Source: Thermoplasmata archaeon (GTDB lineage: Archaea; Thermoplasmatota; Thermoplasmata; Thermoplasmatales; ARK-15). From it: DNA of 64,000 nt. Made by a program: the position numbers and the translations under genes. Position 1 is the stretch's first letter; the number at the start of each line of letters is the position of its first letter. Location of the stretch: positions 3,153 through 67,152 of the forward strand of contig JAGDXS010000003.1 of NCBI GenBank assembly GCA_023261755.1. The letters are read 5' to 3'. This document shows, in pieces, positions 1 to 64,000 of the stretch. Below the pieces are notes generated by a model, which was given only the letters and a program-made list of their open reading frames with translations, had not been told where the DNA came from and searched no databases.

Positions 1-3000
1 GGCCTTTTAGATCCAATAATAAGGGAATGGTTTGAAAGTAAATTTAAGGATCTTACTGAACCACAAGCATATGCTATACCATATATACATAAGGGAGAAA
101 ATGTACTTGTCTCTGCACCAACTGGTTCAGGAAAAACATTAACAGGTTTTTTAACAATAATTAATGAATTATTTTTACTTGCAAAAAATGGAAATTTAGA
201 AGACAAAGTTTATTGTGTTTATGTATCTCCTTTAAAAGCTCTAGCCAACGATATTCACAGAAATCTTGAAGAACCTTTGGAAGAGATAAAAAAACTTGCA
301 AAGGAAAAGGGAATTGAAATTCCTAAAATTACTGTAGGAGTAAGATCCGGTGACACACCACAAAGTCAGAGGCAGAAAATGTTGAGAAAACCTCCGCATA
401 TCTTTATTACAACCCCTGAATCACTTGCTTTGGTTTTATCATCCATAAAATTCAAGGAAAAATTCAGATCCGTGAAATTTGCAATAATAGACGAAACCCA
501 TGAATTATCTGCAAGCAAAAGAGGCGTTATGCTTTCAGTAAACATGGAAAGGCTAGAGCGTCTTTCTGGTCATTTGATAAGGATAGGTCTTTCTGCAACA
601 CAATCACCGATAGAGGAAATGGCCAAATTTGTTGCAGGCTTCAATGAAAATGGAGATGTAAGAGATATTTACATAGCAGAAGTTGAAGCAAAAAAAATGC
701 TTGATCTGAGGGTAATTACGCCTGTTCCAGATCTTGTTAATACACCTTTTGAAATAGCAAATGAAAAAATGTATGATATATTGGTAGATTTAATAAATTC
801 CCATAGGACTACACTTATTTTTACAAACACAAGAAGTGGTACCGAGCACGTTGCATTTAAACTTAAGGAAAAGGGCATAAAAAGTCTTGAAGCGCACCAT
901 TCATCCCTTGGCAAATCAACTAGATTAAAGGTAGAAGAAATGCTAAAAAAGGGAGAATTGAAATGTGTAATATCATCAACAAGTTTAGAGCTTGGAATTG
1001 ATATAGGATACATTGATCTTGTAGTTCAGATTGGTTCCCCTAAAAGCATAGCCAAAGGCCTTCAAAGGATAGGCAGATCAGGTCATGCATATGGTAGAAT
1101 ATCAAAAGGTAGAATGGTTGTATTTGATATGGATGATCTCATTGAATGCACTGTATTGACAAAACAAGTTTATGAAAATAATATAGACAAGGTATTTGTA
1201 CCCAAAAATTCATTGGATGTACTTTCCCAGCTATTAGTAGGTATGAGTCTTGAAGATGTATGGAACATAAACGATGCGTATTCTTTAATTAAGAAATCAT
1301 ACTGTTTTAGGGATCTTCCATTTGAGAAATTCATGGAAGTAATTGATTATCTCTCTGGGAAAACGTATGGTGAAAAATTCTATTCAAAAATATGGTTTGA
1401 TGAAAAAGATGGAAAATTTGGAAAAAAGAAGTCTACAAGAATGATATATTTCATGAATCTTGGAACTATCCCTGAAGAGGCTGATTATGTTGTTCTTGAC
1501 GAGGAAAACATACCACTTGGAGATTTAAGTGAAAAATTTGTTGAGCATTTGAGACCCGGCGATATATTTGTTTTAGGTGGGAGGACATATGAATTTTTAA
1601 GATCCAGGGGATCGAAAGTATATGTAAAAAAAGCGGAGGGAAGAAGACCAACAGTACCGTCATGGGCTGGTGAAATGCTTCCAAGAAGTTTTGATTTGAG
1701 CATTGAAGTGGGGAAATTCAGAAAAAAAATTGAAGAAAAGATAAGAAATAAGGAAAATGTAATAGATTATTTAATGAAAGAATATTACATGGACAGATCT
1801 GGTGCAACTAGTATATATAATTACATAATTGAACAGATGGCTGATGTGGTTCCAACAAATGATCGTCTTCTTGTTGAGGGATATATTGACCCTTCAAAAA
1901 TGTACAACATAATATTCCATTTCCCATTTGGTAGAAGGGTAAATGATGCACTTTCAAGGGTTTATGCTCACAACATAGCAAATAAATATGGCCTTAATAC
2001 AAGGATAACCATAACTGATGACGCATTTATGATTACAGTATCAAAAGAAATTCCACTAAATTCAATTTTAAGTCTTGTGAGCTCCAGAAATTTTACAAAG
2101 GATTTAAAAAATTCACTAAAAAATACCGAACTTTTCAAGCAAAGGTTCAGGCACTGTGCTACAAGGTCTTTTATGATACTTAAAAAATACAAGGGTGCTG
2201 ATATATCTGTAACAAAACAGCAGCTTAAGAGTGATAAAATCCTTGAAATTCTTTCAGAAATTCCTAACTTTCCAGTAATTGAAGAGACCTACAATGAAAT
2301 TTTCAATATTGTAATGGACATGCCTCATGCAATTGAAATATTGAAAGGTATTGAAGATAAAAGCATAGAAGTAAAAATAAAGGATTATTCTGATCAACCT
2401 TCTATCTTTTCTAATAATGTAATACTTTCAAGTATTTCTGATATTGTTTTAATGGAAGATAGATCAGCTTTACTCAAGGAAATTCATATGAAAATATTGA
2501 AAAAAGTACTGCCTGAAGAATATGAGTCTATGTTTACGAGCGATATAATAAAGGAATACTTTGAAAATAAATTTTCCATAAATGGCCATGAAGATTTAAT
2601 TAAATTCATTAAGCAAGTTGGTGCCGCTGATGTATTATCAGAGAAGGGTATAAACATATACTCATTTTCAAAACTCCCCTTTGAAGAACTAAAATCAATT
2701 GCCTTAAACCTAATAAGAAATGGAGAGATTGTTTCAGCTTATACAGATAGATCCGTATTTACAATAAATGATTATTTACCATATTACAAAACATTGTATG
2801 GAAAAGAAAAGATTCCTGATGAAAAAATAAACAAAATTTTATCAATAATAGAGGGAAAAACAACTACAGAGGCATGGAAATTAAGTGGTCTAAAAAGGGA
2901 AGAATTTTTGGATATTTTAAGAGATCTTGAAAAATCTTATATAATATATAGAAAAGATATCATTGAAAATGAAATTTTATGGTCTAAAAGGGAAGTATCA

Positions 3001-5199
3001 TTGGCAGATAGGTATGAATCATTAAAGTTCATAATTGAAAAAATTCTGGAATACTACGGCCCATTAAATTTATCTGAAATTGCATACTATTCCAATTCGA
3101 AAGAGGATGAAATAATAAAAGTGTTGGAAGATCTTGAAAAATTGGGCATAATATCAAGTGGATTTTTCCTGCCCGGTTATGAAAAACAATACATGCTTAA
3201 AAGAGATCTTGATAATATAAAGCCAAAGGCATCAAAAACAAAGGATGATTTAAAAAGATATAGATTCTTTAAAACAACAAGGATTTTTGATAGCATAGAA
3301 GATGCATTCAATAATTATATTTTCTTTTCAACTCCTTACGAGGCAAGCGTAAGAGTGAAGAATTTCAATTTTACTGACTGGGAAGAATTAAGAATAAATA
3401 ATAAAATACTTTTTGGTAAATTCTTAAATAACAGGCTCGTGTACATAAATGAATTGAATGGACATAAATTAAAATTTAAAAATTTGGATCTTGATGAAAA
3501 TGCAAGGAATATTTTAATGAAGCTCGCTACAAAAGAAAAAGCTTCCATTCAAGAATTATCTGAAGATCTAAATTTGCATCCGAAAACTGTAAGAAATTAT
3601 ATAAATATTCTTGAAAATAATCTTTACGTTTCAAGATCATATGCTCCTGATGAAATTAAATATCCAAGTTCAAAATTCACAACTGTTGATGTCAAAACAG
3701 GAAATATTCATGATTTATTGATTGACTTAATAAAGAACCTGGGGCCATTTTCTATAAACGATCTTTCAGAAATGCTTGGCATAGACAAATCAACAATAAG
3801 GGACGCATTATTTAATTTAAATGTAGGTTCATTTGAAATATCTGGTGTAATTTATTACGGCGAAATCGGAGAGGTGGAAAATGATAATAAATCTTTACTT
3901 TTGGATTTTCAGGATCCATTTTTATTCCCTTATAGGATTGAACTTTTGCAAAAGTTTGGATCTGATTTTAATTTTTATCTGGTAAAAGATGGTGAAATTC
4001 TAGGGGCACTTTCAATAGACGAAAATTCTGATAATCTTTTAATTGTTGATATGAGCATACCTGATGATTTCATGGAAATTTTAATGAACAGAATAAATGA
4101 GTTAATGAAATTCTACGATAATGATGTCCTAATTATTGAAAAAATTAATGGGAAGAATGCTTCCGAATATTCTAAAATTTTGAGAAAATTTTCATTAAAG
4201 AGGCATGGAAAATATCTCATTAAAGGGGATATATACAGCAAAGATTTCCAATCTTCAGATCTTTTAAAAATCATGTTTTACCACCAGGGTATAGATATTG
4301 AAACAAGAAAAAAAACACCCATGGATCTTGATACACTTAATATGGGGATCAGAACAGAATTTGAAATACCAATAAGGTGCTGGCATTACATTTCAACAGA
4401 CAGATTAAAAAGAAGCAATTTGCTTTATTTAACTAGAGGTATACCAGATCAGCAAACATACGCCTCTTCAAAGAATATTAAAATTTTCCAATCAATAAGA
4501 AATTCACAGCTTGATAAAAAGCATCTCGTAATTATAAATATGCTAAGAAACAAGGGCTTTGTATCACCTCAAGAAATAATAGATGAATCACCTTTGGGCA
4601 GGGAAATAACATCTGACATTATTGATTATCTTTTTATTAACAATTTCATTGCAAAGGGCCCGAAGGATGATCTTATTCTAATTGAATCTGATATGGCAAG
4701 GAAAAATGCACTTAATAAATATATTGAAAATCTTTTAAGGATGTTCGGTGTCATAAATGTTAAAAGATCAGCTTACCTTCTAAAGGGATTTGTAAGCCAG
4801 ATGGATTTGAAGGATTCAATAAAAAAATTGGCAAACTACAAGAATCTAAAAAGAATATTCTTTGGTGATGAATTATTTTATGCAAATCCTGATGAAGTAG
4901 AAATGTTAAAATCAAGAAACATTGATTATGAATTCATTTTGGATCCTCATGACATATTATACCAATACATGATCCCTGACCTGAGAAAATATGTTAAACC
5001 AGGATATTTTATCGTAATGAAGGGTACAAGCATAATAGCATCATTCAGAGGAAAGCTTAAAAAGAAACAATTTGATATTTATGATTATGAAGGTGATGAT
5101 GAAGGAAAAAGGGTGATCAGAAGTATTACAGGATCTATGGGCGTAAAGGTAGAATTTACACAGAAAATTTCTGATGAAATTATTGATGAATTCCAATGA
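1..5199 (+). CDS. lhr: Lhr-family DExH-box ATP-dependent helicase, unusually long form (>1730 aa); 5' end lies outside the window
   Basis: Frame 1 is open from nt 1, so the ORF-track start at 277 is an internal TTG. The upstream translation reads GLLDPIIREWFESKFKDLTEPQAYAIPYIHKGENVLVSAPTGSGKTL (Walker A at 115-138). DExH box DETHEL is at 490-507. LSAT (motif III) and QRIGRSGH (motif VI) are present. The C-terminal ~800 aa consists of repeated wHTH-like segments. Confidence 0.85.
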   Translation, partial: GLLDPIIREWFESKFKDLTEPQAYAIPYIHKGENVLVSAPTGSGKTLTGFLTIINELFLLAKNGNLEDKVYCVYVSPLKALANDIHRNLEEPLEEIKKLAKEKGIEIPKITVGVRSGDTPQSQRQKMLRKPPHIFITTPESLALVLSSIKFKEKFRSVKFAIIDETHELSASKRGVMLSVNMERLERLSGHLIRIGLSATQSPIEEMAKFVAGFNENGDVRDIYIAEVEAKKMLDLRVITPVPDLVNTPFEIANEKMYDILVDLINSHRTTLIFTNTRSGTEHVAFKLKEKGIKSLEAHHSSLGKSTRLKVEEMLKKGELKCVISSTSLELGIDIGYIDLVVQIGSPKSIAKGLQRIGRSGHAYGRISKGRMVVFDMDDLIECTVLTKQVYENNIDKVFVPKNSLDVLSQLLVGMSLEDVWNINDAYSLIKKSYCFRDLPFEKFMEVIDYLSGKTYGEKFYSKIWFDEKDGKFGKKKSTRMIYFMNLGTIPEEADYVVLDEENIPLGDLSEKFVEHLRPGDIFVLGGRTYEFLRSRGSKVYVKKAEGRRPTVPSWAGEMLPRSFDLSIEVGKFRKKIEEKIRNKENVIDYLMKEYYMDRSGATSIYNYIIEQMADVVPTNDRLLVEGYIDPSKMYNIIFHFPFGRRVNDALSRVYAHNIANKYGLNTRITITDDAFMITVSKEIPLNSILSLVSSRNFTKDLKNSLKNTELFKQRFRHCATRSFMILKKYKGADISVTKQQLKSDKILEILSEIPNFPVIEETYNEIFNIVMDMPHAIEILKGIEDKSIEVKIKDYSDQPSIFSNNVILSSISDIVLMEDRSALLKEIHMKILKKVLPEEYESMFTSDIIKEYFENKFSINGHEDLIKFIKQVGAADVLSEKGINIYSFSKLPFEELKSIALNLIRNGEIVSAYTDRSVFTINDYLPYYKTLYGKEKIPDEKINKILSIIEGKTTTEAWKLSGLKREEFLDILRDLEKSYIIYRKDIIENEILWSKREVSLADRYESLKFIIEKILEYYGPLNLSEIAYYSNSKEDEIIKVLEDLEKLGIISSGFFLPGYEKQYMLKRDLDNIKPKASKTKDDLKRYRFFKTTRIFDSIEDAFNNYIFFSTPYEASVRVKNFNFTDWEELRINNKILFGKFLNNRLVYINELNGHKLKFKNLDLDENARNILMKLATKEKASIQELSEDLNLHPKTVRNYINILENNLYVSRSYAPDEIKYPSSKFTTVDVKTGNIHDLLIDLIKNLGPFSINDLSEMLGIDKSTIRDALFNLNVGSFEISGVIYYGEIGEVENDNKSLLLDFQDPFLFPYRIELLQKFGSDFNFYLVKDGEILGALSIDENSDNLLIVDMSIPDDFMEILMNRINELMKFYDNDVLIIEKINGKNASEYSKILRKFSLKRHGKYLIKGDIYSKDFQSSDLLKIMFYHQGIDIETRKKTPMDLDTLNMGIRTEFEIPIRCWHYISTDRLKRSNLLYLTRGIPDQQTYASSKNIKIFQSIRNSQLDKKHLVIINMLRNKGFVSPQEIIDESPLGREITSDIIDYLFINNFIAKGPKDDLILIESDMARKNALNKYIENLLRMFGVINVKRSAYLLKGFVSQMDLKDSIKKLANYKNLKRIFFGDELFYANPDEVEMLKSRNIDYEFILDPHDILYQYMIPDLRKYVKPGYFIVMKGTSIIASFRGKLKKKQFDIYDYEGDDEGKRVIRSITGSMGVKVEFTQKISDEIIDEFQ

Positions 5200-58664: not shown

Positions 58665-59282
58665 CTATTTAAGAATTTTTCCAGTTTCCATGTACCATAA
58701 ATAAAGATCAAGAGTGGCAAGATCCATATTAAGAACTGACGCTAGTTTTTTAAGCTCTTCTTCTAATTTTAAATAATTTTTAGATGTTATTTTTATTTCA
58801 TCTGTCAAAGAATTTTCCTTCATGATTTTAAAAATGTGTTTGTCTATGATTGCATAATTTTTATATCCAACGTTCCTTAAAAAGTGTGATGATTCTTTAA
58901 AATTTACACCTTTAATATTTTTTATTAACCAATACCTTTTTTCCTCATCATTCATTTCAAAAATAATTTTTTTAATCGAATGAGCATATTTTTGATTTTC
59001 ATGGATATATTTTGCCCTTGTATTGTAAAATCTATAACCTAAATTTTTTAATCTTTCTGCAAGGGACATTTCATCAAGGCATGCGAATTCTTCTGGCGTG
59101 ATATTTCTTTGCATTTTTAAGCCTAATTCTGCTGATGTATTTGCTGTTAATATGCAAAAGCATAATTCTGAAAACCATTGAATATCATCTTTTCTATTCA
59201 TTTCTTCAAATTCCTTTATCTTTTTTTCAACATCTTTAGAAATTTTTTCCTTTAATTCTATTATTTTTTCTAGAATATTCAT
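58665..59282 (-). CDS. ogg: 8-oxoguanine DNA glycosylase/AP lyase, archaeal Ogg2 type (HhH-GPD)
   Basis: Motifs CILTANTSA, KGVNFKESSHFLRNVGY and IIDKHI are present. The product from the ATG at 59282 is 205 aa. The ORF-track N-terminal extension to 59570 overlaps speH and looks spurious. Confidence 0.75.
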   Translation of the reverse strand: MNILEKIIELKEKISKDVEKKIKEFEEMNRKDDIQWFSELCFCILTANTSAELGLKMQRNITPEEFACLDEMSLAERLKNLGYRFYNTRAKYIHENQKYAHSIKKIIFEMNDEEKRYWLIKNIKGVNFKESSHFLRNVGYKNYAIIDKHIFKIMKENSLTDEIKITSKNYLKLEEELKKLASVLNMDLATLDLYLWYMETGKILK

Positions 59283-59420
59283 TGACTTAAGATATAGTTG
59301 TGCACATATTAATCCTTTGTTATAACAAAAATTTAGGAAATAATAGGGGTAAAGTTCAAATATAATGTTTAATTCAACCTTTTCTGTATTCACTCTGGAG
59401 GTGAAAAAGAAATATGGAGG

Positions 59421-59825
59421 ATGCTGAAGATGGCCGTTGGAATTCATATAATCGCGGATTTTTACGGCGTTGATAGAGATAAGATTACATATGTTGAACA
59501 GATGAAACCTATTTTTGAGGATACTGTAAAATATGCAAAATTGACGAAGATATCTTCTGATTATTATCAATTCAGGCCTATGGGATGTAGTGGAATTGTT
59601 TTGCTTGCAGAATCACATCTCTCTTTTCACACATGGCCTGAACATGAGCTTATAACTCTTGATATATATACGTGTGGGGACCCCAATCAAGCACTAGTTG
59701 CTTTGGATTACCTTCAAAAAGTGCTTGATCCAAAGAAGGTTTCACATCTTATTCTTGAAAGAGGTACAGACGTTAATGAAAAAATACCTGAGAATGAGCA
59801 GGAAGTAACTAAGGTGGAAAGCTGA
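59421..59825 (+). CDS. speH: S-adenosylmethionine decarboxylase proenzyme (pyruvoyl, small archaeal/bacterial type)
   Basis: Motifs [10 protein letters not shown] and the self-cleavage site [12 protein letters not shown] are present. An alternative ATG lies at 59430. Confidence 0.85.
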
Positions 59826-60370
59826 TGTTTACAATTATACCTAGCAAGGTTTTTTTTACAAAGGGTGTAGGAAGACATAAATCAAGGCTTGGTTCTTTTG
59901 AACAAGCTTTAAGGGATGCAGGTATTGCTCAGTTCAACCTTGTTGAGGTAAGTTCTATATTTCCTCCTAATGCTGAAATTGTAACAAAGGATGAGGGACT
60001 TACCTATTTAAAACCAGGGCAAATTCTTTTTGTTGTACTTGCTAAAAATTCTAGTGATGAATTAAACAGGTTAATTTCAGCAGCTGTTGGATTGGCAATA
60101 CCCAAGGATAGAAATTTGTATGGATATCTTAGCGAGCATCATAGTTTCGGTGAGACTGAAAAAAGTGCTGGTGATTTTGCTGAAGATCTTGCAGCTGAAA
60201 TGCTCGCATCAACAATGGGTATAGATCATCATCTCATATGGGATGAAAAAAATCAAACTTGGGCACTTGATGATAGGATATTGCTTACACAACATGTAGC
60301 ATCAAGTGCAACTGTTGAAAAATCGGGTGAATGGACAACAGTCATTGCCGCTGCTGTTCTGATTCCATGA
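59825..60370 (+). CDS. pdaD: Pyruvoyl-dependent arginine decarboxylase
   Basis: Motifs FFTKGVG and [12 protein letters not shown] (the Ser-Ser cleavage site) are present. Its ATG overlaps the speH stop codon. Confidence 0.85.
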
Positions 60371-61241
60371 ACCTGTTTGCATAGATGTGAGCTAATTTAA
60401 TAGGATCCCCTTTTTTAAATAATTTTTTTATAAGAATGAAAGATGATTCCATAGATATATTGCTCCCTGGTGAAATGTATCTATTTTGAATGTACCATCC
60501 AATCTGTGCATTCCCTGATAAAATTTTATCATTAAATATATCACCGAATAGATGTGATTTAGCTATTCCTATGGTAGGGATATTTTTTATAACGCCAACA
60601 AAACTAGCAAGACCAAATCCTCTAGGATGCATAATTCCATTACCATCTATTAAAAGAAGATCATTTCCATCATAAAATTTTATGATCTCTTTACCTTCTC
60701 TGTAGGAGAAGTATGTTGGAATATAAGGAAAATTTACAATATCTTTATAATTTTTAATATCCAATATTTTTAGATTTTCATCTATTTTTACAAATGATAA
60801 ATATATGGTTCTTCCATTATATGATCCATCAATGGCAACAATTCCATCATAATTTACGTCATTAAGTGAAATTTTCTCTTTCAAAATTTGTTCATCATTT
60901 CTTAATTTTTTAAGAGGAAATTCTGTTTTGAAATCTTTGAATATTATTTCATTGAAATTTTCCACCACTCCATTTTTTATTTTTATACCTTCAGATTCAA
61001 GAAGTTCTATTTTTTTATTTGTTCCAAATGGATGATTATACCCACCTAATGTTCCATCACTTTTTATCACTCTATGGCAGGGAACTATTATAGGTGTAGG
61101 ATTTTCTGCAAGCATCTGACCTACAGCCCTTGAAGCAATTTGATCACCCAATGCAAGTGCAAGTTCCTTGTATGTTGTTACCATTCCCTTGGGTATCTGT
61201 TTAACAAGGTCGTAAAAATATGAATATAGATCAATATCCAT
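60342..61241 (-). CDS. Bifunctional O6-alkylguanine-DNA alkyltransferase (N-terminal) / endonuclease V (C-terminal) fusion
   Basis: The N-terminal part has the MGMT active site IVPCHRVI. The C-terminal part has the EndoV motifs [34 protein letters not shown] and PTIGIAKS. Confidence 0.85.
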
Positions 61242-61262: not shown

Positions 61263-62903
61263 CTAAAATTTTTTTCCTTTTATTTCATCAGGATTAGTTG
61301 TAATTAATGAATTTTCTTCTTCAGTTGCAATTATTCTCAATGGAAATCTTAGTGGATGTGAAATAAAATACGCCTGGGAATTTCCTGAAAGATTTGGTTT
61401 CTCTGCATTCAATATGTAATTTTCTTCTGAATTTGTAAATCTATAAAATGATCTCATTTCATCACTTATGTATCCATGTTTGAAAATTATATGGAATAGA
61501 GCATTATTCATAATTGATTTTCCAAAAGGTGTAATAAGAAAGTCATCTGCTTTTTGAGATATTACATTCATACTGCACTTCCATCTCCTCACATGTCTGA
61601 ACATTGTATCAAGAAAGGATGCAGCATATTCATTTTTAAGGATCTTCCACGTTTCATCTATAACTACAAGCTTTTTTTCTAAATCATCTGTTATTCTACC
61701 ATATATAAAATCAAGCACCATAACCATATAAAAAGTCAAAAATTCATCACTCACATTCCTTAAATTGAATGATACTATGTTCCTATCTATTTTAATATAA
61801 GAATCTGAATCCAATGACTTTAAAGATCCTGAAATAAATTTTTCTAGGATGTAAGATATCTCAATTGATCTTTCATCCCCGAAAGATTTTAATGTATCTA
61901 TTAAGTCCTGGAATTTAGGTATTTTTTTCCTGGAATAAAGCATTGTTAAAGCCGCGTCTAAAATAGCCAAATCATTTTTTGTCAGATCCAACAGTATTGA
62001 AAATAATGTTCTTAAGCGCAATATTTTCTCATCTGTGTTTTTTTCATTACCAAGATCAAATATATTTATTTCGTTGCCTTTTATCCCAAGGTCAATTGAA
62101 TTTCCACCTAAAATTTTTATCAGGTCACTATATTCTCCCAGCGGATCTATTATGAATACTTTAGTATATTTATCAGAAATTAATTCTCTTATTATTGAAA
62201 GCTTGACAAAATAAGATTTACCAAAACCGGTTGTACCTGAAATTATTGAATGACTTGATGGAAATGACCATCTATTAAAAATAACAGGTGTTTGATTCTT
62301 ATCATTTATACCAAAAAATATACCATCTTCCATGGTAACGTAATCAACTAGAAAAGGAAAAAGTGTAGCAAGTGCATGTGTGTGAACATGCTGTGAATTT
62401 TTAGAATCAAATATACTTAATGGAAATATTTTATGGAAATTCTTTTTCTGATCATAAATTGGAATCCATGTATTAAAAATACTTTTCTTTGTTTCCCATT
62501 GAATATAACTAAATCCACTTTTTGATTCTTCTTCACTTTCTGCTTTGGAATAAAATGAAAGTGATACCTGGTATAAATGACCTTTACCTGAAATTATATA
62601 ATCTTGAAGGGCCTTTGTACTTACAAGTTTTCTTTCTAGTTTTCTTCTTCTAGAAGTATTTTCCCTTGAAGAATTTAATTCAGGTTCAATAGTTTCATTT
62701 TCCATATCGAGTATTTCTACCATTTTAGAATCATTTAGTGGAATTATATTCATAGAAACATCAATCGAGAAATTAGAGTTTAAAAAATTTTTTAGTATTC
62801 CAAAATGAACATTCTTAGGCAATTCCTTGCTTATTAAAATATAATAAATATATTTCCCAGCTAATACTTTATTCTTAAGATATATAAAATTAGATGACCT
62901 CAT
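61263..62903 (-). CDS. VirB4/TraC/CedB-like conjugation-type ATPase
   Basis: Walker A is GTTGFGKS (62214-62237). Other motifs are VFIIDPLGEY, INIFDL, Walker-B-like LVVIDETWKIL and NVISQKADDF. Confidence 0.8.
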   Translation of the reverse strand: MRSSNFIYLKNKVLAGKYIYYILISKELPKNVHFGILKNFLNSNFSIDVSMNIIPLNDSKMVEILDMENETIEPELNSSRENTSRRRKLERKLVSTKALQDYIISGKGHLYQVSLSFYSKAESEEESKSGFSYIQWETKKSIFNTWIPIYDQKKNFHKIFPLSIFDSKNSQHVHTHALATLFPFLVDYVTMEDGIFFGINDKNQTPVIFNRWSFPSSHSIISGTTGFGKSYFVKLSIIRELISDKYTKVFIIDPLGEYSDLIKILGGNSIDLGIKGNEINIFDLGNEKNTDEKILRLRTLFSILLDLTKNDLAILDAALTMLYSRKKIPKFQDLIDTLKSFGDERSIEISYILEKFISGSLKSLDSDSYIKIDRNIVSFNLRNVSDEFLTFYMVMVLDFIYGRITDDLEKKLVVIDETWKILKNEYAASFLDTMFRHVRRWKCSMNVISQKADDFLITPFGKSIMNNALFHIIFKHGYISDEMRSFYRFTNSEENYILNAEKPNLSGNSQAYFISHPLRFPLRIIATEEENSLITTNPDEIKGKKF

Positions 62904-63216
62904 ACTTTGCCTCCAAAATAATTAAATAAATAGAGAAAGTAAAAAGGAAAAATGTGCTAATCAATAGAAAAAATTTTAAATTAAGAATTAAATAAATAGC
63001 AACAAAGAATAATGATAAAATAATAATATGTTTTATTTTGTTCTTTGATAAAAGATAATAATAAAATGCAGAGATGTTTATTAAAAATATACCCCACATG
63101 AAAGTGCCAAAAATAAAAATTAATAATTCTGAAAATAATGAGAATGTAAGTAAATGAAGTAAATTGTAATTTTCCATGGAATCACCATATAAATGAGTAT
63201 AATTCTCCGTATTCAT
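62890..63216 (-). CDS. Hypothetical small polytopic membrane protein in the VirB4-like operon
   Basis: It is 108 aa with 3-4 TM segments and overlaps the ATPase gene by 14 nt. I see no sequence-level family assignment. Confidence 0.45.
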   Translation of the reverse strand: MNTENYTHLYGDSMENYNLLHLLTFSLFSELLIFIFGTFMWGIFLINISAFYYYLLSKNKIKHIIILSLFFVAIYLILNLKFFLLISTFFLFTFSIYLIILEAKYEVI

Positions 63217-63931
63217 GGAATTTCAATCTTCTTGTCCTTAAATTTATACTTTCTAATGAATTCATTATCAAATTTGCTCTTTCATTCAATATTTCAGATG
63301 CTCTTTTTAAGTCTATTTTGTATTTATTTTCGCTATATTTCAAATCTAAGACTATGATAAATTTCTTTTTTGAAATTTTATTGTTGTAATATTTTAATAA
63401 CTTTTCCTGAGCTTCCTTTACTCTTTTAAGATAAGCATTTTCATTGTTTAATTTAATTTCATAATTATCCTTATAAGAATAGATATAAATGGAAATAGGG
63501 AAATCTATTGAATTAAGGATTGAACAATATTGGCTATATATGCTTTCTTTACTGCTTTCATCCATAAATTCTAAACTTAATCCTGATGTTTCAATGGCAC
63601 ACATGTATCCATCAAAATATTCCCAAACTAGAGAATTTCTCGATAATGTTTTAAAATTTATAAATTCTATAATATCACTTCTTTCTTTTCTTTTTGGTAA
63701 AATTTTCCAAATTATAGCCTTTATAAAAAAAATGTCAAGATCCGTATTATTATATTTTTTCCATACTAAAATTACAGGTAAAATTAATAAAATAATTAAA
63801 AAAACAGATATGTATATTATAAGGATGATTATTGGCAAAGAATAAAACATTATTCTGATAATCTGGGTTAAGGAAAATGGACCCAAATAACTTTCATTTC
63901 CAAGAGGCTCGGGCACATCAACACTTATCAT
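63182..63931 (-). CDS. Hypothetical membrane-anchored protein (N-terminal TM hairpin plus soluble domain) in the VirB4-like operon
   Basis: It is 249 aa. The segment FSLTQIIRIMFYSLPIIILIIYISVFLIILLILPVILVW forms two TM helices. It overlaps the next gene by 35 nt. GGAGAG lies about 10 nt upstream of the ATG. Confidence 0.45.
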   Translation of the reverse strand: MISVDVPEPLGNESYLGPFSLTQIIRIMFYSLPIIILIIYISVFLIILLILPVILVWKKYNNTDLDIFFIKAIIWKILPKRKERSDIIEFINFKTLSRNSLVWEYFDGYMCAIETSGLSLEFMDESSKESIYSQYCSILNSIDFPISIYIYSYKDNYEIKLNNENAYLKRVKEAQEKLLKYYNNKISKKKFIIVLDLKYSENKYKIDLKRASEILNERANLIMNSLESINLRTRRLKFHEYGELYSFIW

Positions 63932-64000
63932 GGTTTACCACTCTCCTTCGGAAGTAATGAAAAATCTGATACTAAACTCTTTGAAACTGATCTATATGCT

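Follow-up and report, generated by a model that had tools for sequence, protein, structure and literature searches.

The operon at the window edge

This analysis concerns a group of genes for a putative type IV secretion system (T4SS) at the far end of a 64,000-nucleotide stretch of DNA from a Thermoplasmata archaeon (assembly GCA_023261755.1, contig JAGDXS010000003.1, positions 3,153 to 67,152), to which we refer as the window. The original prediction had noticed three overlapping open reading frames (ORFs) on the minus strand, coding for proteins of 249, 108 and 546 amino acids (aa), and had read them as one operon in which a VirB4-type ATPase is accompanied by membrane partners, a candidate relative of the archaeal Ced and Ted systems. 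Its coordinates, the overlaps of the ORFs and the 21-nt gap that follows them all proved exact. The features at the locus are as follows.

63928..64000, minus strand: VirB6/TrbL-like gene, last 24 codons including the stop; 73 nt lie in the window, the rest past its edge
63182..63931, minus strand: 249-aa predicted VirB3/PrgI-like hairpin plus VirB4 N-terminal domain (TrsD/TraC-like)
62890..63216, minus strand: 108-aa small membrane protein with 3-4 predicted transmembrane (TM) segments, at the VirB4 split point
61263..62903, minus strand: 546-aa VirB4-type ATPase, predicted to comprise the rest of the N-terminal domain and the RecA-like C-terminal domain
60342..61241, minus strand: MGMT-Endonuclease V (MGMT-EndoV) fusion gene, 299 aa, directly downstream and co-oriented

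The genes for the 249-aa and 108-aa proteins overlap by 35 nt and those for the 108-aa protein and the ATPase by 14 nt; 21 nt separate the stop of the ATPase gene from the MGMT-EndoV gene. We extended the window through five near-identical contigs (L001-L005), which were found by exact-protein look-up. The translation of positions 63928-64000 ends in AYRSVSKSLVSDFSLLPKESGKP before the stop codon and is the C-terminus of a 347-aa ORF on contig L001 (GCA_049976945.1). This contig differs from the window by seven substitutions in 2.8 kb, and all seven leave the encoded proteins identical. The full VirB6/TrbL-like gene occupies L001:3254-4297, and its TGA overlaps the ATG of the 249-aa gene (ATGA). 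Read in the orientation of the operon, L001 carries SNO (pdxT), gcvT, an 80-aa ORF, another 80-aa ORF on the opposite strand and a gene for a pilin-like protein of ~115 aa, followed by the genes for the 347-aa, 249-aa and 108-aa proteins, the ATPase and MGMT-EndoV.

The window edge cuts a five-gene operon, with genes for a candidate VirB2-like pilin, a VirB6/TrbL-like protein, the 249-aa and 108-aa proteins and the VirB4 ATPase. The junctions between these genes are, in order, an 11-nt gap, an ATGA, the 35-nt overlap and the 14-nt overlap, which argues for a single translationally coupled unit. The operon proposed at the outset is upheld by this extension; the pilin-like gene and most of the VirB6-like gene lie just outside the window, past position 64,000. 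Taken together, the set of ORFs, the Pfam matches of the ATPase and the conservation of the three ORFs in diverged genomes are beyond what chance would produce.

The ATPase scores above the Pfam gathering thresholds (GA) for P-loop_TraG (44.2 bits, GA 25.8), AAA_10 (36.1 bits, GA 27.5) and DUF87 (42.3 bits, GA 23.2). Its best NCBIfam model is conju_CD1110 VirB4 (E 1e-58, 199 bits, model positions 201-719 of 752), followed by the models for VirB4 of mycoplasma integrated conjugative elements (ICEs; 2e-41), TraC (6e-31) and VirB4/CagE (6e-16), all of these scores being below the equivalog cut-offs (199 versus 325 bits for CD1110). By sequence, the best match in the PDB is 4AG5, a VirB4 C-terminal domain (E 3.8e-14). 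The motifs on which the original prediction was built were all recovered: GTTGFGKS at exactly 62214-62237 (Walker A), VFIIDPLGEY, LVVIDETWKIL and NVISQKADDF; Walker B lies at 61638-61670. Across 20 relatives, GTTGFGKS, VVIDE(T/A)W, RHVRRWK (RHxRR) and SQ show either no change or conservative changes only. Because of the ranking of the models, the 4AG5 match and the conserved motifs, we assign the ATPase to the VirB4 proteins of monoderm (MPF-FATA) type. Membership in a HerA or FtsK clade, which would have spoken against a conjugative origin, found no support: HerA_C reached 12.9 bits (GA 22), HerA_antiphage an E-value of 0.01, and HerA and TraD stayed at noise level, as against 1e-58 for VirB4. 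The suggested affinity to CedB had to be given up, as the ATPase obtains 43 bits with the CedB model NF041017, for which the cut-off is 700.

Upstream of the ATPase, hydropathy agrees with the topologies first proposed: the 249-aa protein has one 43-residue hydrophobic stretch (residues 19-61), as expected for a hairpin, and the 108-aa protein has two long hydrophobic blocks, sufficient for 3-4 TM segments. The 249-aa protein matches the NCBIfam models VirB4_plasma (model positions 34-272, E 4e-11) and CD1110 (positions 21-157). Its matches to the MPF-FATA components PrgI (16.3 bits, GA 27) and TrsD (15.9 bits, cut-off 200) are both weak; PrgI is weakly matched by three of five orthologues. 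In hhalign, a profile of the five orthologues aligns with the separate 'TraC-like' genes found at Patescibacteria-type loci (95%, E 3.6e-8), with a 246-aa protein coded at L020, a locus that resembles an ICE (98.7%), and with residues 80-283 of P0053 (92%, E 5.8e-7). P0053 is a VirB3-VirB4 protein of 889 aa that is not split and comes from a different Thermoplasmata metagenome-assembled genome. As the 546-aa ATPase aligns to residues 321-853 of the same P0053, the two genes are colinear pieces of one VirB3-VirB4. This relation is seen by profile methods only; a phmmer search of the PDB with the 249-aa protein gave nothing above noise, and BLASTP against P0053 was not significant.

By sequence, we therefore identify in the 249-aa protein a fusion of a VirB3-like hairpin with the VirB4 N-terminal domain, which means that VirB4 is coded in two genes. 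A split VirB4 with a separate N-terminal domain is not unprecedented, because the T4SSs of Patescibacteria, which derive from MPF-FATA, have separate TrsD homologues associated with VirB4 (PMC12102498). The two small upstream proteins had originally been taken for partners of VirB3/VirB2 or CedA type. Their connection with T4SS families stands, but the 249-aa protein is neither VirB2 nor CedA; it combines the VirB3-like hairpin with the VirB4 domain.

The small membrane protein between the two VirB4 pieces is the product of a genuine gene. All four lineages in which the operon was compared (see below) have an ORF of 92-108 aa there, with unchanged topology, and in P0011 (642 aa) the small TM protein is joined in frame to the ATPase. 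It has no match in Pfam or NCBIfam, and comparison with PrgI and with the N-terminus of P0051 by hhalign, as well as with the 138-aa ORF of L020, gave no match either.

For the 347-aa protein, whose family has no Pfam match, the AlphaFold2 (AF2) model consists of six long TM helices. A Foldseek search of 350,542 PDB chains with this model returned TrwI/VirB6 of R388 in all top five places (probability 0.90-1.00, TM-scores 0.32-0.46), and every later match had a probability of at most 0.21. Profile comparison points in the same direction. In hhalign, the family aligns with the TrbL_3-labelled proteins directly upstream of VirB4 in loci L016 and L018 (93%, E 3e-7), with which it has the motif LP..S..L..P.TE..GKR in common, and with the proteins at the same position in L019 (97%) and L020 (97.8%). 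From Foldseek and hhalign, the 347-aa protein thus appears as the polytopic VirB6-like member that is characteristic of Ced/Ted-type systems. The label PF19590 TrbL_3 of the genes at L016:6674-7741 and L018:1033-2307 is a precomputed one; our own hmmscan of Pfam found no family at E<=1 for them, a discrepancy that is probably due to a difference in Pfam version.

In the pilin-like protein, a signal peptide with an Ala-X-Ala-like end is combined with a pair of long hydrophobic helices and a charged loop that is invariant (HKDDREG..KFKHD); the AF2 model is all-helical (pLDDT 74). The two Pfam families that its orthologues match most often are TrbC/VirB2 (8 of 16, best 1.3e-4) and T4SS_pilin PF18895 (again 8 of 16, best 1.9e-3), and at L019 the gene in the same position has a weak precomputed T4SS_pilin match. 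From these features, a VirB2-like pilin is the probable but not proven identity of this protein. Unrelated families, a possibility left open for the membrane proteins at the start, did not turn up among the matches, which were with T4SS families.

Conservation in the chromosome and probable ancestry

The order of the operon and its flanks is the same in genomes where the ATPase is 72% (L010), 51% (L006/L007) and 35% (L008/L009) identical to that of the window, so that the comparison across genomes for which the original prediction had asked shows a locus that is syntenic among diverged Thermoplasmata. Its site is conserved too, between gcvT with the two 80-aa ORFs on one side and MGMT-EndoV/PvlArgDC/AdoMetDC on the other. 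A scan of contigs with one protein as query yielded one locus only, L011, at 78% identity. The amino-acid divergence of the five genes has the same rank order as that of the flanking gcvT, SNO and PvlArgDC, and its magnitude is like that of SNO and MGMT-EndoV. Synonymous sites are saturated, and with them the dS estimates, so that only pN and pS can be compared; pN/pS of the cluster genes is 0.23-0.59 in most comparisons. These values indicate that the cluster is under purifying selection, and the synteny indicates vertical inheritance of the operon in a clade of uncultured Thermoplasmata.

In the 5-10 kb to each side of the cluster, neither a gene for an integrase, relaxase or coupling ATPase nor a tRNA or flanking att-like repeat is present; what had been reported missing in the 2.7 kb first inspected is still missing after the extension. 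Over the same distance, the operon thus resembles Ced and Ted in being chromosomal, conserved in its lineage and free of relaxase, integrase and type IV coupling protein (T4CP). The ten largest ORFs of the window code for ordinary functions of an archaeal chromosome and include those for Cdc48, the small subunit of PolD, TiaS, RNR, IMPDH and an Lhr helicase; no T4CP, relaxase or HerA is found among these ten, the smaller ORFs not having been scanned.

The impression that this stretch is richer in AT than its surroundings was right when the whole window is the standard and not when the immediate flanks are. The G+C content is 24-27% in windows at 62-64 kb and 27.6% in the cluster as a whole, ~1.7 standard deviations below the mean of 4.1-kb windows, and the entire window has 31.4%. 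The flanking gcvT and SNO genes, however, have 27.4-27.6%, the G+C at third codon positions (GC3) of the cluster is within the range of its neighbours, and the lowest G+C of the window, at 39-42 kb (0.23-0.26), lies below that of the T4SS cluster. With G+C and GC3 like those of the neighbours, a foreign-DNA signal in composition is ruled out; the low G+C of the cluster reflects TM-rich coding.

An exhaustive HMMER search with the ATPase gave 4,295 relatives, of which the nearest unsplit ones are the Thermoplasmata proteins P0053 and P0198. At their loci (L016/L017, GCA_038870955.1), a gene of ~260 aa is followed by a VirB6-like gene, a VirB3-VirB4 gene (898 aa) and a gene for a 959-aa VirD4/TraG-like ATPase, after which come genes for ResIII, a methyltransferase and a UvrD-like protein; L016/L017 carry restriction-modification genes. 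The core of VirB6-like gene and VirB4 recurs in L018, where it adjoins a 1139-aa TraG-like ATPase. L020 shares the split of the window, with a VirB6-like protein of 425 aa, proteins of 246 and 138 aa, a VirB4 of 567 aa and a T4SS_pilin gene, in the company of an integrase, a DNA methylase and AbiEii. These elements have homologous VirB6-like and VirB4 proteins in the gene order of the window operon, and they appear to be mobile, since they stand in unrelated contexts with coupling ATPase, restriction-modification or integrase genes. L019:7056-12547 (GCA_964468585.1) is situated in an archaeal chromosome between Topo VI and GINS and has a pilin (113 aa), proteins of 347 and 191 aa and a VirB4 (516 aa), with a 670-aa FtsK/HerA-like ATPase retained after VirB4; it could be an intermediate stage that still holds the second ATPase. 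At a greater distance come chromosomal loci of Patescibacteria type, where PrgI, TraC-like and VirB4 genes occur and the ATPases are 27-29% identical to that of the window. Compared with the relatives L016-L020, the window operon looks like the same module minus the coupling ATPase and the mobility genes.

Some better known systems are comparable too. In the MPF-FATA modules of monoderm bacteria (CD1110 family; PrgI/TrsC, TrsD, TrsE), hairpin and TrsD/TraC-like N-terminal domain are likewise coded apart from the ATPase, but the window operon, which is archaeal and chromosomally fixed, shows no homologue of VirD4, relaxase, VirB1 or VirB8. The chromosomal T4SSs of Patescibacteria are also mostly without relaxase and of MPF-FATA ancestry, with PrgI, TrsD, VirB4, VirB6 and VirB2-like pilins (PMC12102498). 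These systems are bacterial, and their PrgI and N-terminal domain protein are coded in separate genes, whereas the two are fused in the window operon; no VirB3-VirB4 fusions occur in the Patescibacteria dataset (PMC12102498). A further group of five genes with a VirB4 and membrane proteins, CSP5_1185-1189 of Cuniculiplasma, a cultured member of Thermoplasmatales, can be likened to the window operon by its description only. It comprises arCOG05340, a VirB4 of arCOG04034, arCOG05369 and a membrane protein confined to Thermoplasmatales, and is listed without a function (PMC5155288).

Neighbouring genes and other features

The MGMT-EndoV protein directly downstream combines the Pfam domain DNA_binding_1 of O6-alkylguanine transferase with Endonuclease_5, and it is kept in all related loci. 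A bifunctional MGMT-Endonuclease V protein has reportedly been characterised in Ferroplasma, in agreement with a host from Thermoplasmata. The gap between the ATPase gene and the MGMT-EndoV gene is shortest in L010 (7 nt), longer in L008 (13 nt) and longest in the window (21 nt). MGMT-EndoV may be co-transcribed with the operon and is at most a possible part of the system. Through such co-transcription, there is a weak suggestion of a tie between the operon and the repair of DNA damage. The linkage to repair genes that the original prediction had emphasized persists in part: the short gap is real and MGMT-EndoV adjoins in three of the four lineages, but ogg, the second repair gene invoked, is not conserved nearby. 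In the L006/L007 lineage only, purQ-purL-purS are placed on the opposite strand between the ATPase and MGMT-EndoV genes (L006/L007:11613-14960), and in L015 pur genes are found upstream of the cluster.

On the other side, the two 80-aa ORFs (L001:2291-2533 on the plus strand and L001:2537-2779 on the minus strand) are present in all four lineages at 38-74% identity, one of them divergent from the pilin gene. They have no match in Pfam or the PDB and may code for a regulator or accessory proteins; the idea that the divergent ORF is a ribbon-helix-helix regulator was dropped, having no support from either database. Between the divergent genes, ahead of the one for the pilin-like protein, the intergenic DNA contains ~60 bp of repeated TTTATAA/TATATA (L001:2815-2885, equivalent to window positions ~65340-65410). 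As this block is conserved across loci with saturated synonymous sites, it is likely a promoter or operator.

Contigs L001-L005 all end 2.4-5.3 kb upstream of the ATPase, where the assemblies are probably broken by a repeat. A 78-aa fragment at L001:125-361, which has no Pfam match, may resemble the N-terminus of TnpB/IS605. Within the window, the 301-aa ORF for Ogg (58665-59570, minus strand) starts at a TTG and overlaps the AdoMetDC gene on the opposite strand. On related contigs Ogg is called at 205-242 aa, the Ogg-HhH domain begins at residue 114, and the true start is probably downstream of the TTG. Near the opposite edge of the window (277-5199, plus strand), there is an ORF of 1640 aa with Lhr-type DEAD, Helicase_C, WH_Lhr and DEAD_assoc domains and a winged-helix helix-turn-helix region around residue 1075; its length is unusual for an Lhr.

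Proposed function and its alternatives

Ced and Ted are domesticated T4SSs that are defined by VirB2, VirB6 and VirB4, and they are the only experimentally characterised archaeal systems of such minimal make-up; they transfer DNA, and their components share no recognisable sequence similarity with each other (PMC9905601). Ted of Thermoproteales (TedC pilin, VirB6-like TedA, VirB4-like TedB) and Ced of Sulfolobales (CedA1, CedA, CedA2, CedB) have in common with the window operon that the VirB2/VirB6/VirB4 set is chromosomal and without relaxase. TedC has a cleavable signal peptide, as the pilin-like protein of the window apparently does too (PMC9905601). On the other hand, the window operon is not orthologous to Ced, judging by the CedB score, its host belongs to Thermoplasmata, its ancestry is MPF-FATA-like, and the two genes that code for its VirB4 have an additional one, for a small TM protein, lying between them. 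Descriptions of Ced and Ted are restricted to Sulfolobales and Thermoproteales; Thermoplasmata go unmentioned in Beltran et al., and our literature search found no account of a Ced/Ted-like system in this class.

Together, our data suggest, with about an even chance of being right, that the operon is a reduced and chromosomally fixed derivative of an MPF-FATA system, domesticated independently into a minimal T4SS of the Ced/Ted kind, and that it serves as a conduit for DNA, which it would most probably import. At the membrane, the two VirB4 pieces would be anchored through the VirB3-like hairpin and the small TM protein. A VirB4 hexamer would power the extraction of the VirB2-like pilin and its polymerisation into a filament, and the VirB6-like protein would form a pore across the single membrane with the filament on top. 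This conduit would carry DNA between cells, most probably inward like Ced and Ted. Because the operon has neither coupling ATPase nor relaxase, an importer or generic conduit is more plausible than a classical donor. As to its origin, an archaeal conjugative element of MPF-FATA type would have become a fixed chromosomal operon, with the loss of its coupling ATPase and of every mobility gene. DNA transfer by the operon is what we infer from the likeness to Ced and Ted, and by the same analogy it may import DNA between cells and be induced by damage.

Several observations weigh against this interpretation. The substrate and the direction of transport are both taken from the analogy, and the match to the CedB model, apart from its low score, covers residues 189-426 only (E 2.3e-11). 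All Pfam matches of the pilin orthologues are below the gathering score, and the pilin-like protein has no match in a PDB profile search or in Foldseek. The model of the 347-aa protein is of low confidence (pLDDT 57.5, pTM 0.51), and its Foldseek matches to TrwI/VirB6 have E-values of only 0.04-0.2. The tie to repair is loosened by the ~3.3 kb of opposite-strand purQLS that separate MGMT-EndoV from the ATPase in L006/L007 and, in L008/L009, by the lack of linkage to ogg. As ~70 kb of the genome are covered, the gene for a coupling protein or relaxase could lie elsewhere. Finally, functions other than conjugation have been proposed for the chromosomal, relaxase-less T4SSs of Patescibacteria (PMC12102498).

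This last point leads to an alternative that we regard as unlikely but take seriously, namely that the same domesticated apparatus handles a cargo other than DNA and is used for adhesion, for the exchange of proteins or lipids, or for contact with other cells such as episymbionts. It would agree with an operon that has no relaxase, T4CP or DNA-processing gene, and beyond the archaeal clades the ATPase has its next relatives at, among others, the Patescibacteria-type chromosomal loci for which non-conjugative roles have been argued (PMC12102498). However, Ced and Ted are of the same minimal make-up and transfer DNA (PMC9905601), and a DNA-repair gene directly adjoins the operon in three of four lineages.

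A working donor or export system is quite improbable in our view. Its T4CP and DNA-processing enzymes would be coded elsewhere, and it would mobilise the chromosome or an unlinked element. Close relatives do hold a VirD4/TraG-like ATPase directly after VirB4, the large ATPase of L019 occupies this very place, and the genome was inspected in part only. Yet all four lineages have a housekeeping repair gene where the T4CP would be, and the largest ORFs of the window, as listed above, do not include the components that a donor would need.

The reading as the decaying end of an ICE, with the split VirB4 as a pseudogene, which the original prediction had kept as its alternative, has next to nothing left in its favour: VirB4 in pieces, a somewhat low G+C and population contigs that break a few kb upstream are set against a split form and small TM gene that are kept down to 35% ATPase identity and occur as an in-frame fusion as well, catalytic motifs that are intact, non-synonymous divergence that is lower than synonymous and in step with that of the flanking housekeeping genes, the same such flanks in all lineages, the lack of integrase, relaxase, tRNA and att repeats near a cluster whose G+C and GC3 are like those of its neighbours, and separate genes for the VirB4 N-terminal domain (TrsD) that are described as VirB4-associated T4SS components in Patescibacteria (PMC12102498).

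If the operon is indeed a domesticated DNA conduit, one may go a step further, on ground that we consider doubtful. Archaea would then have domesticated conjugation machines three times independently, here for the first time outside Crenarchaeota. This machine would be derived from MPF-FATA-type elements that still circulate in Thermoplasmata, its VirB4 would be in three pieces (hairpin with N-terminal domain, small TM protein and ATPase), and co-transcription with MGMT-EndoV would wire DNA uptake to the response to alkylation and deamination damage. Ced and Ted have shown that conjugation machinery can be turned into a cellular organelle for DNA import, so far in two crenarchaeal orders only. 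As objects of experiment, the pilin would suit cryo-electron microscopy and the split VirB4 biochemical work, and genetics could turn to the Cuniculiplasma cluster. Should the interpretation be true, the mobile relatives with coupling ATPase or integrase that are visible in metagenomes would make the route of domestication directly traceable, and T4SS-derived exchange of chromosomal DNA would be more widespread in archaea than is known.

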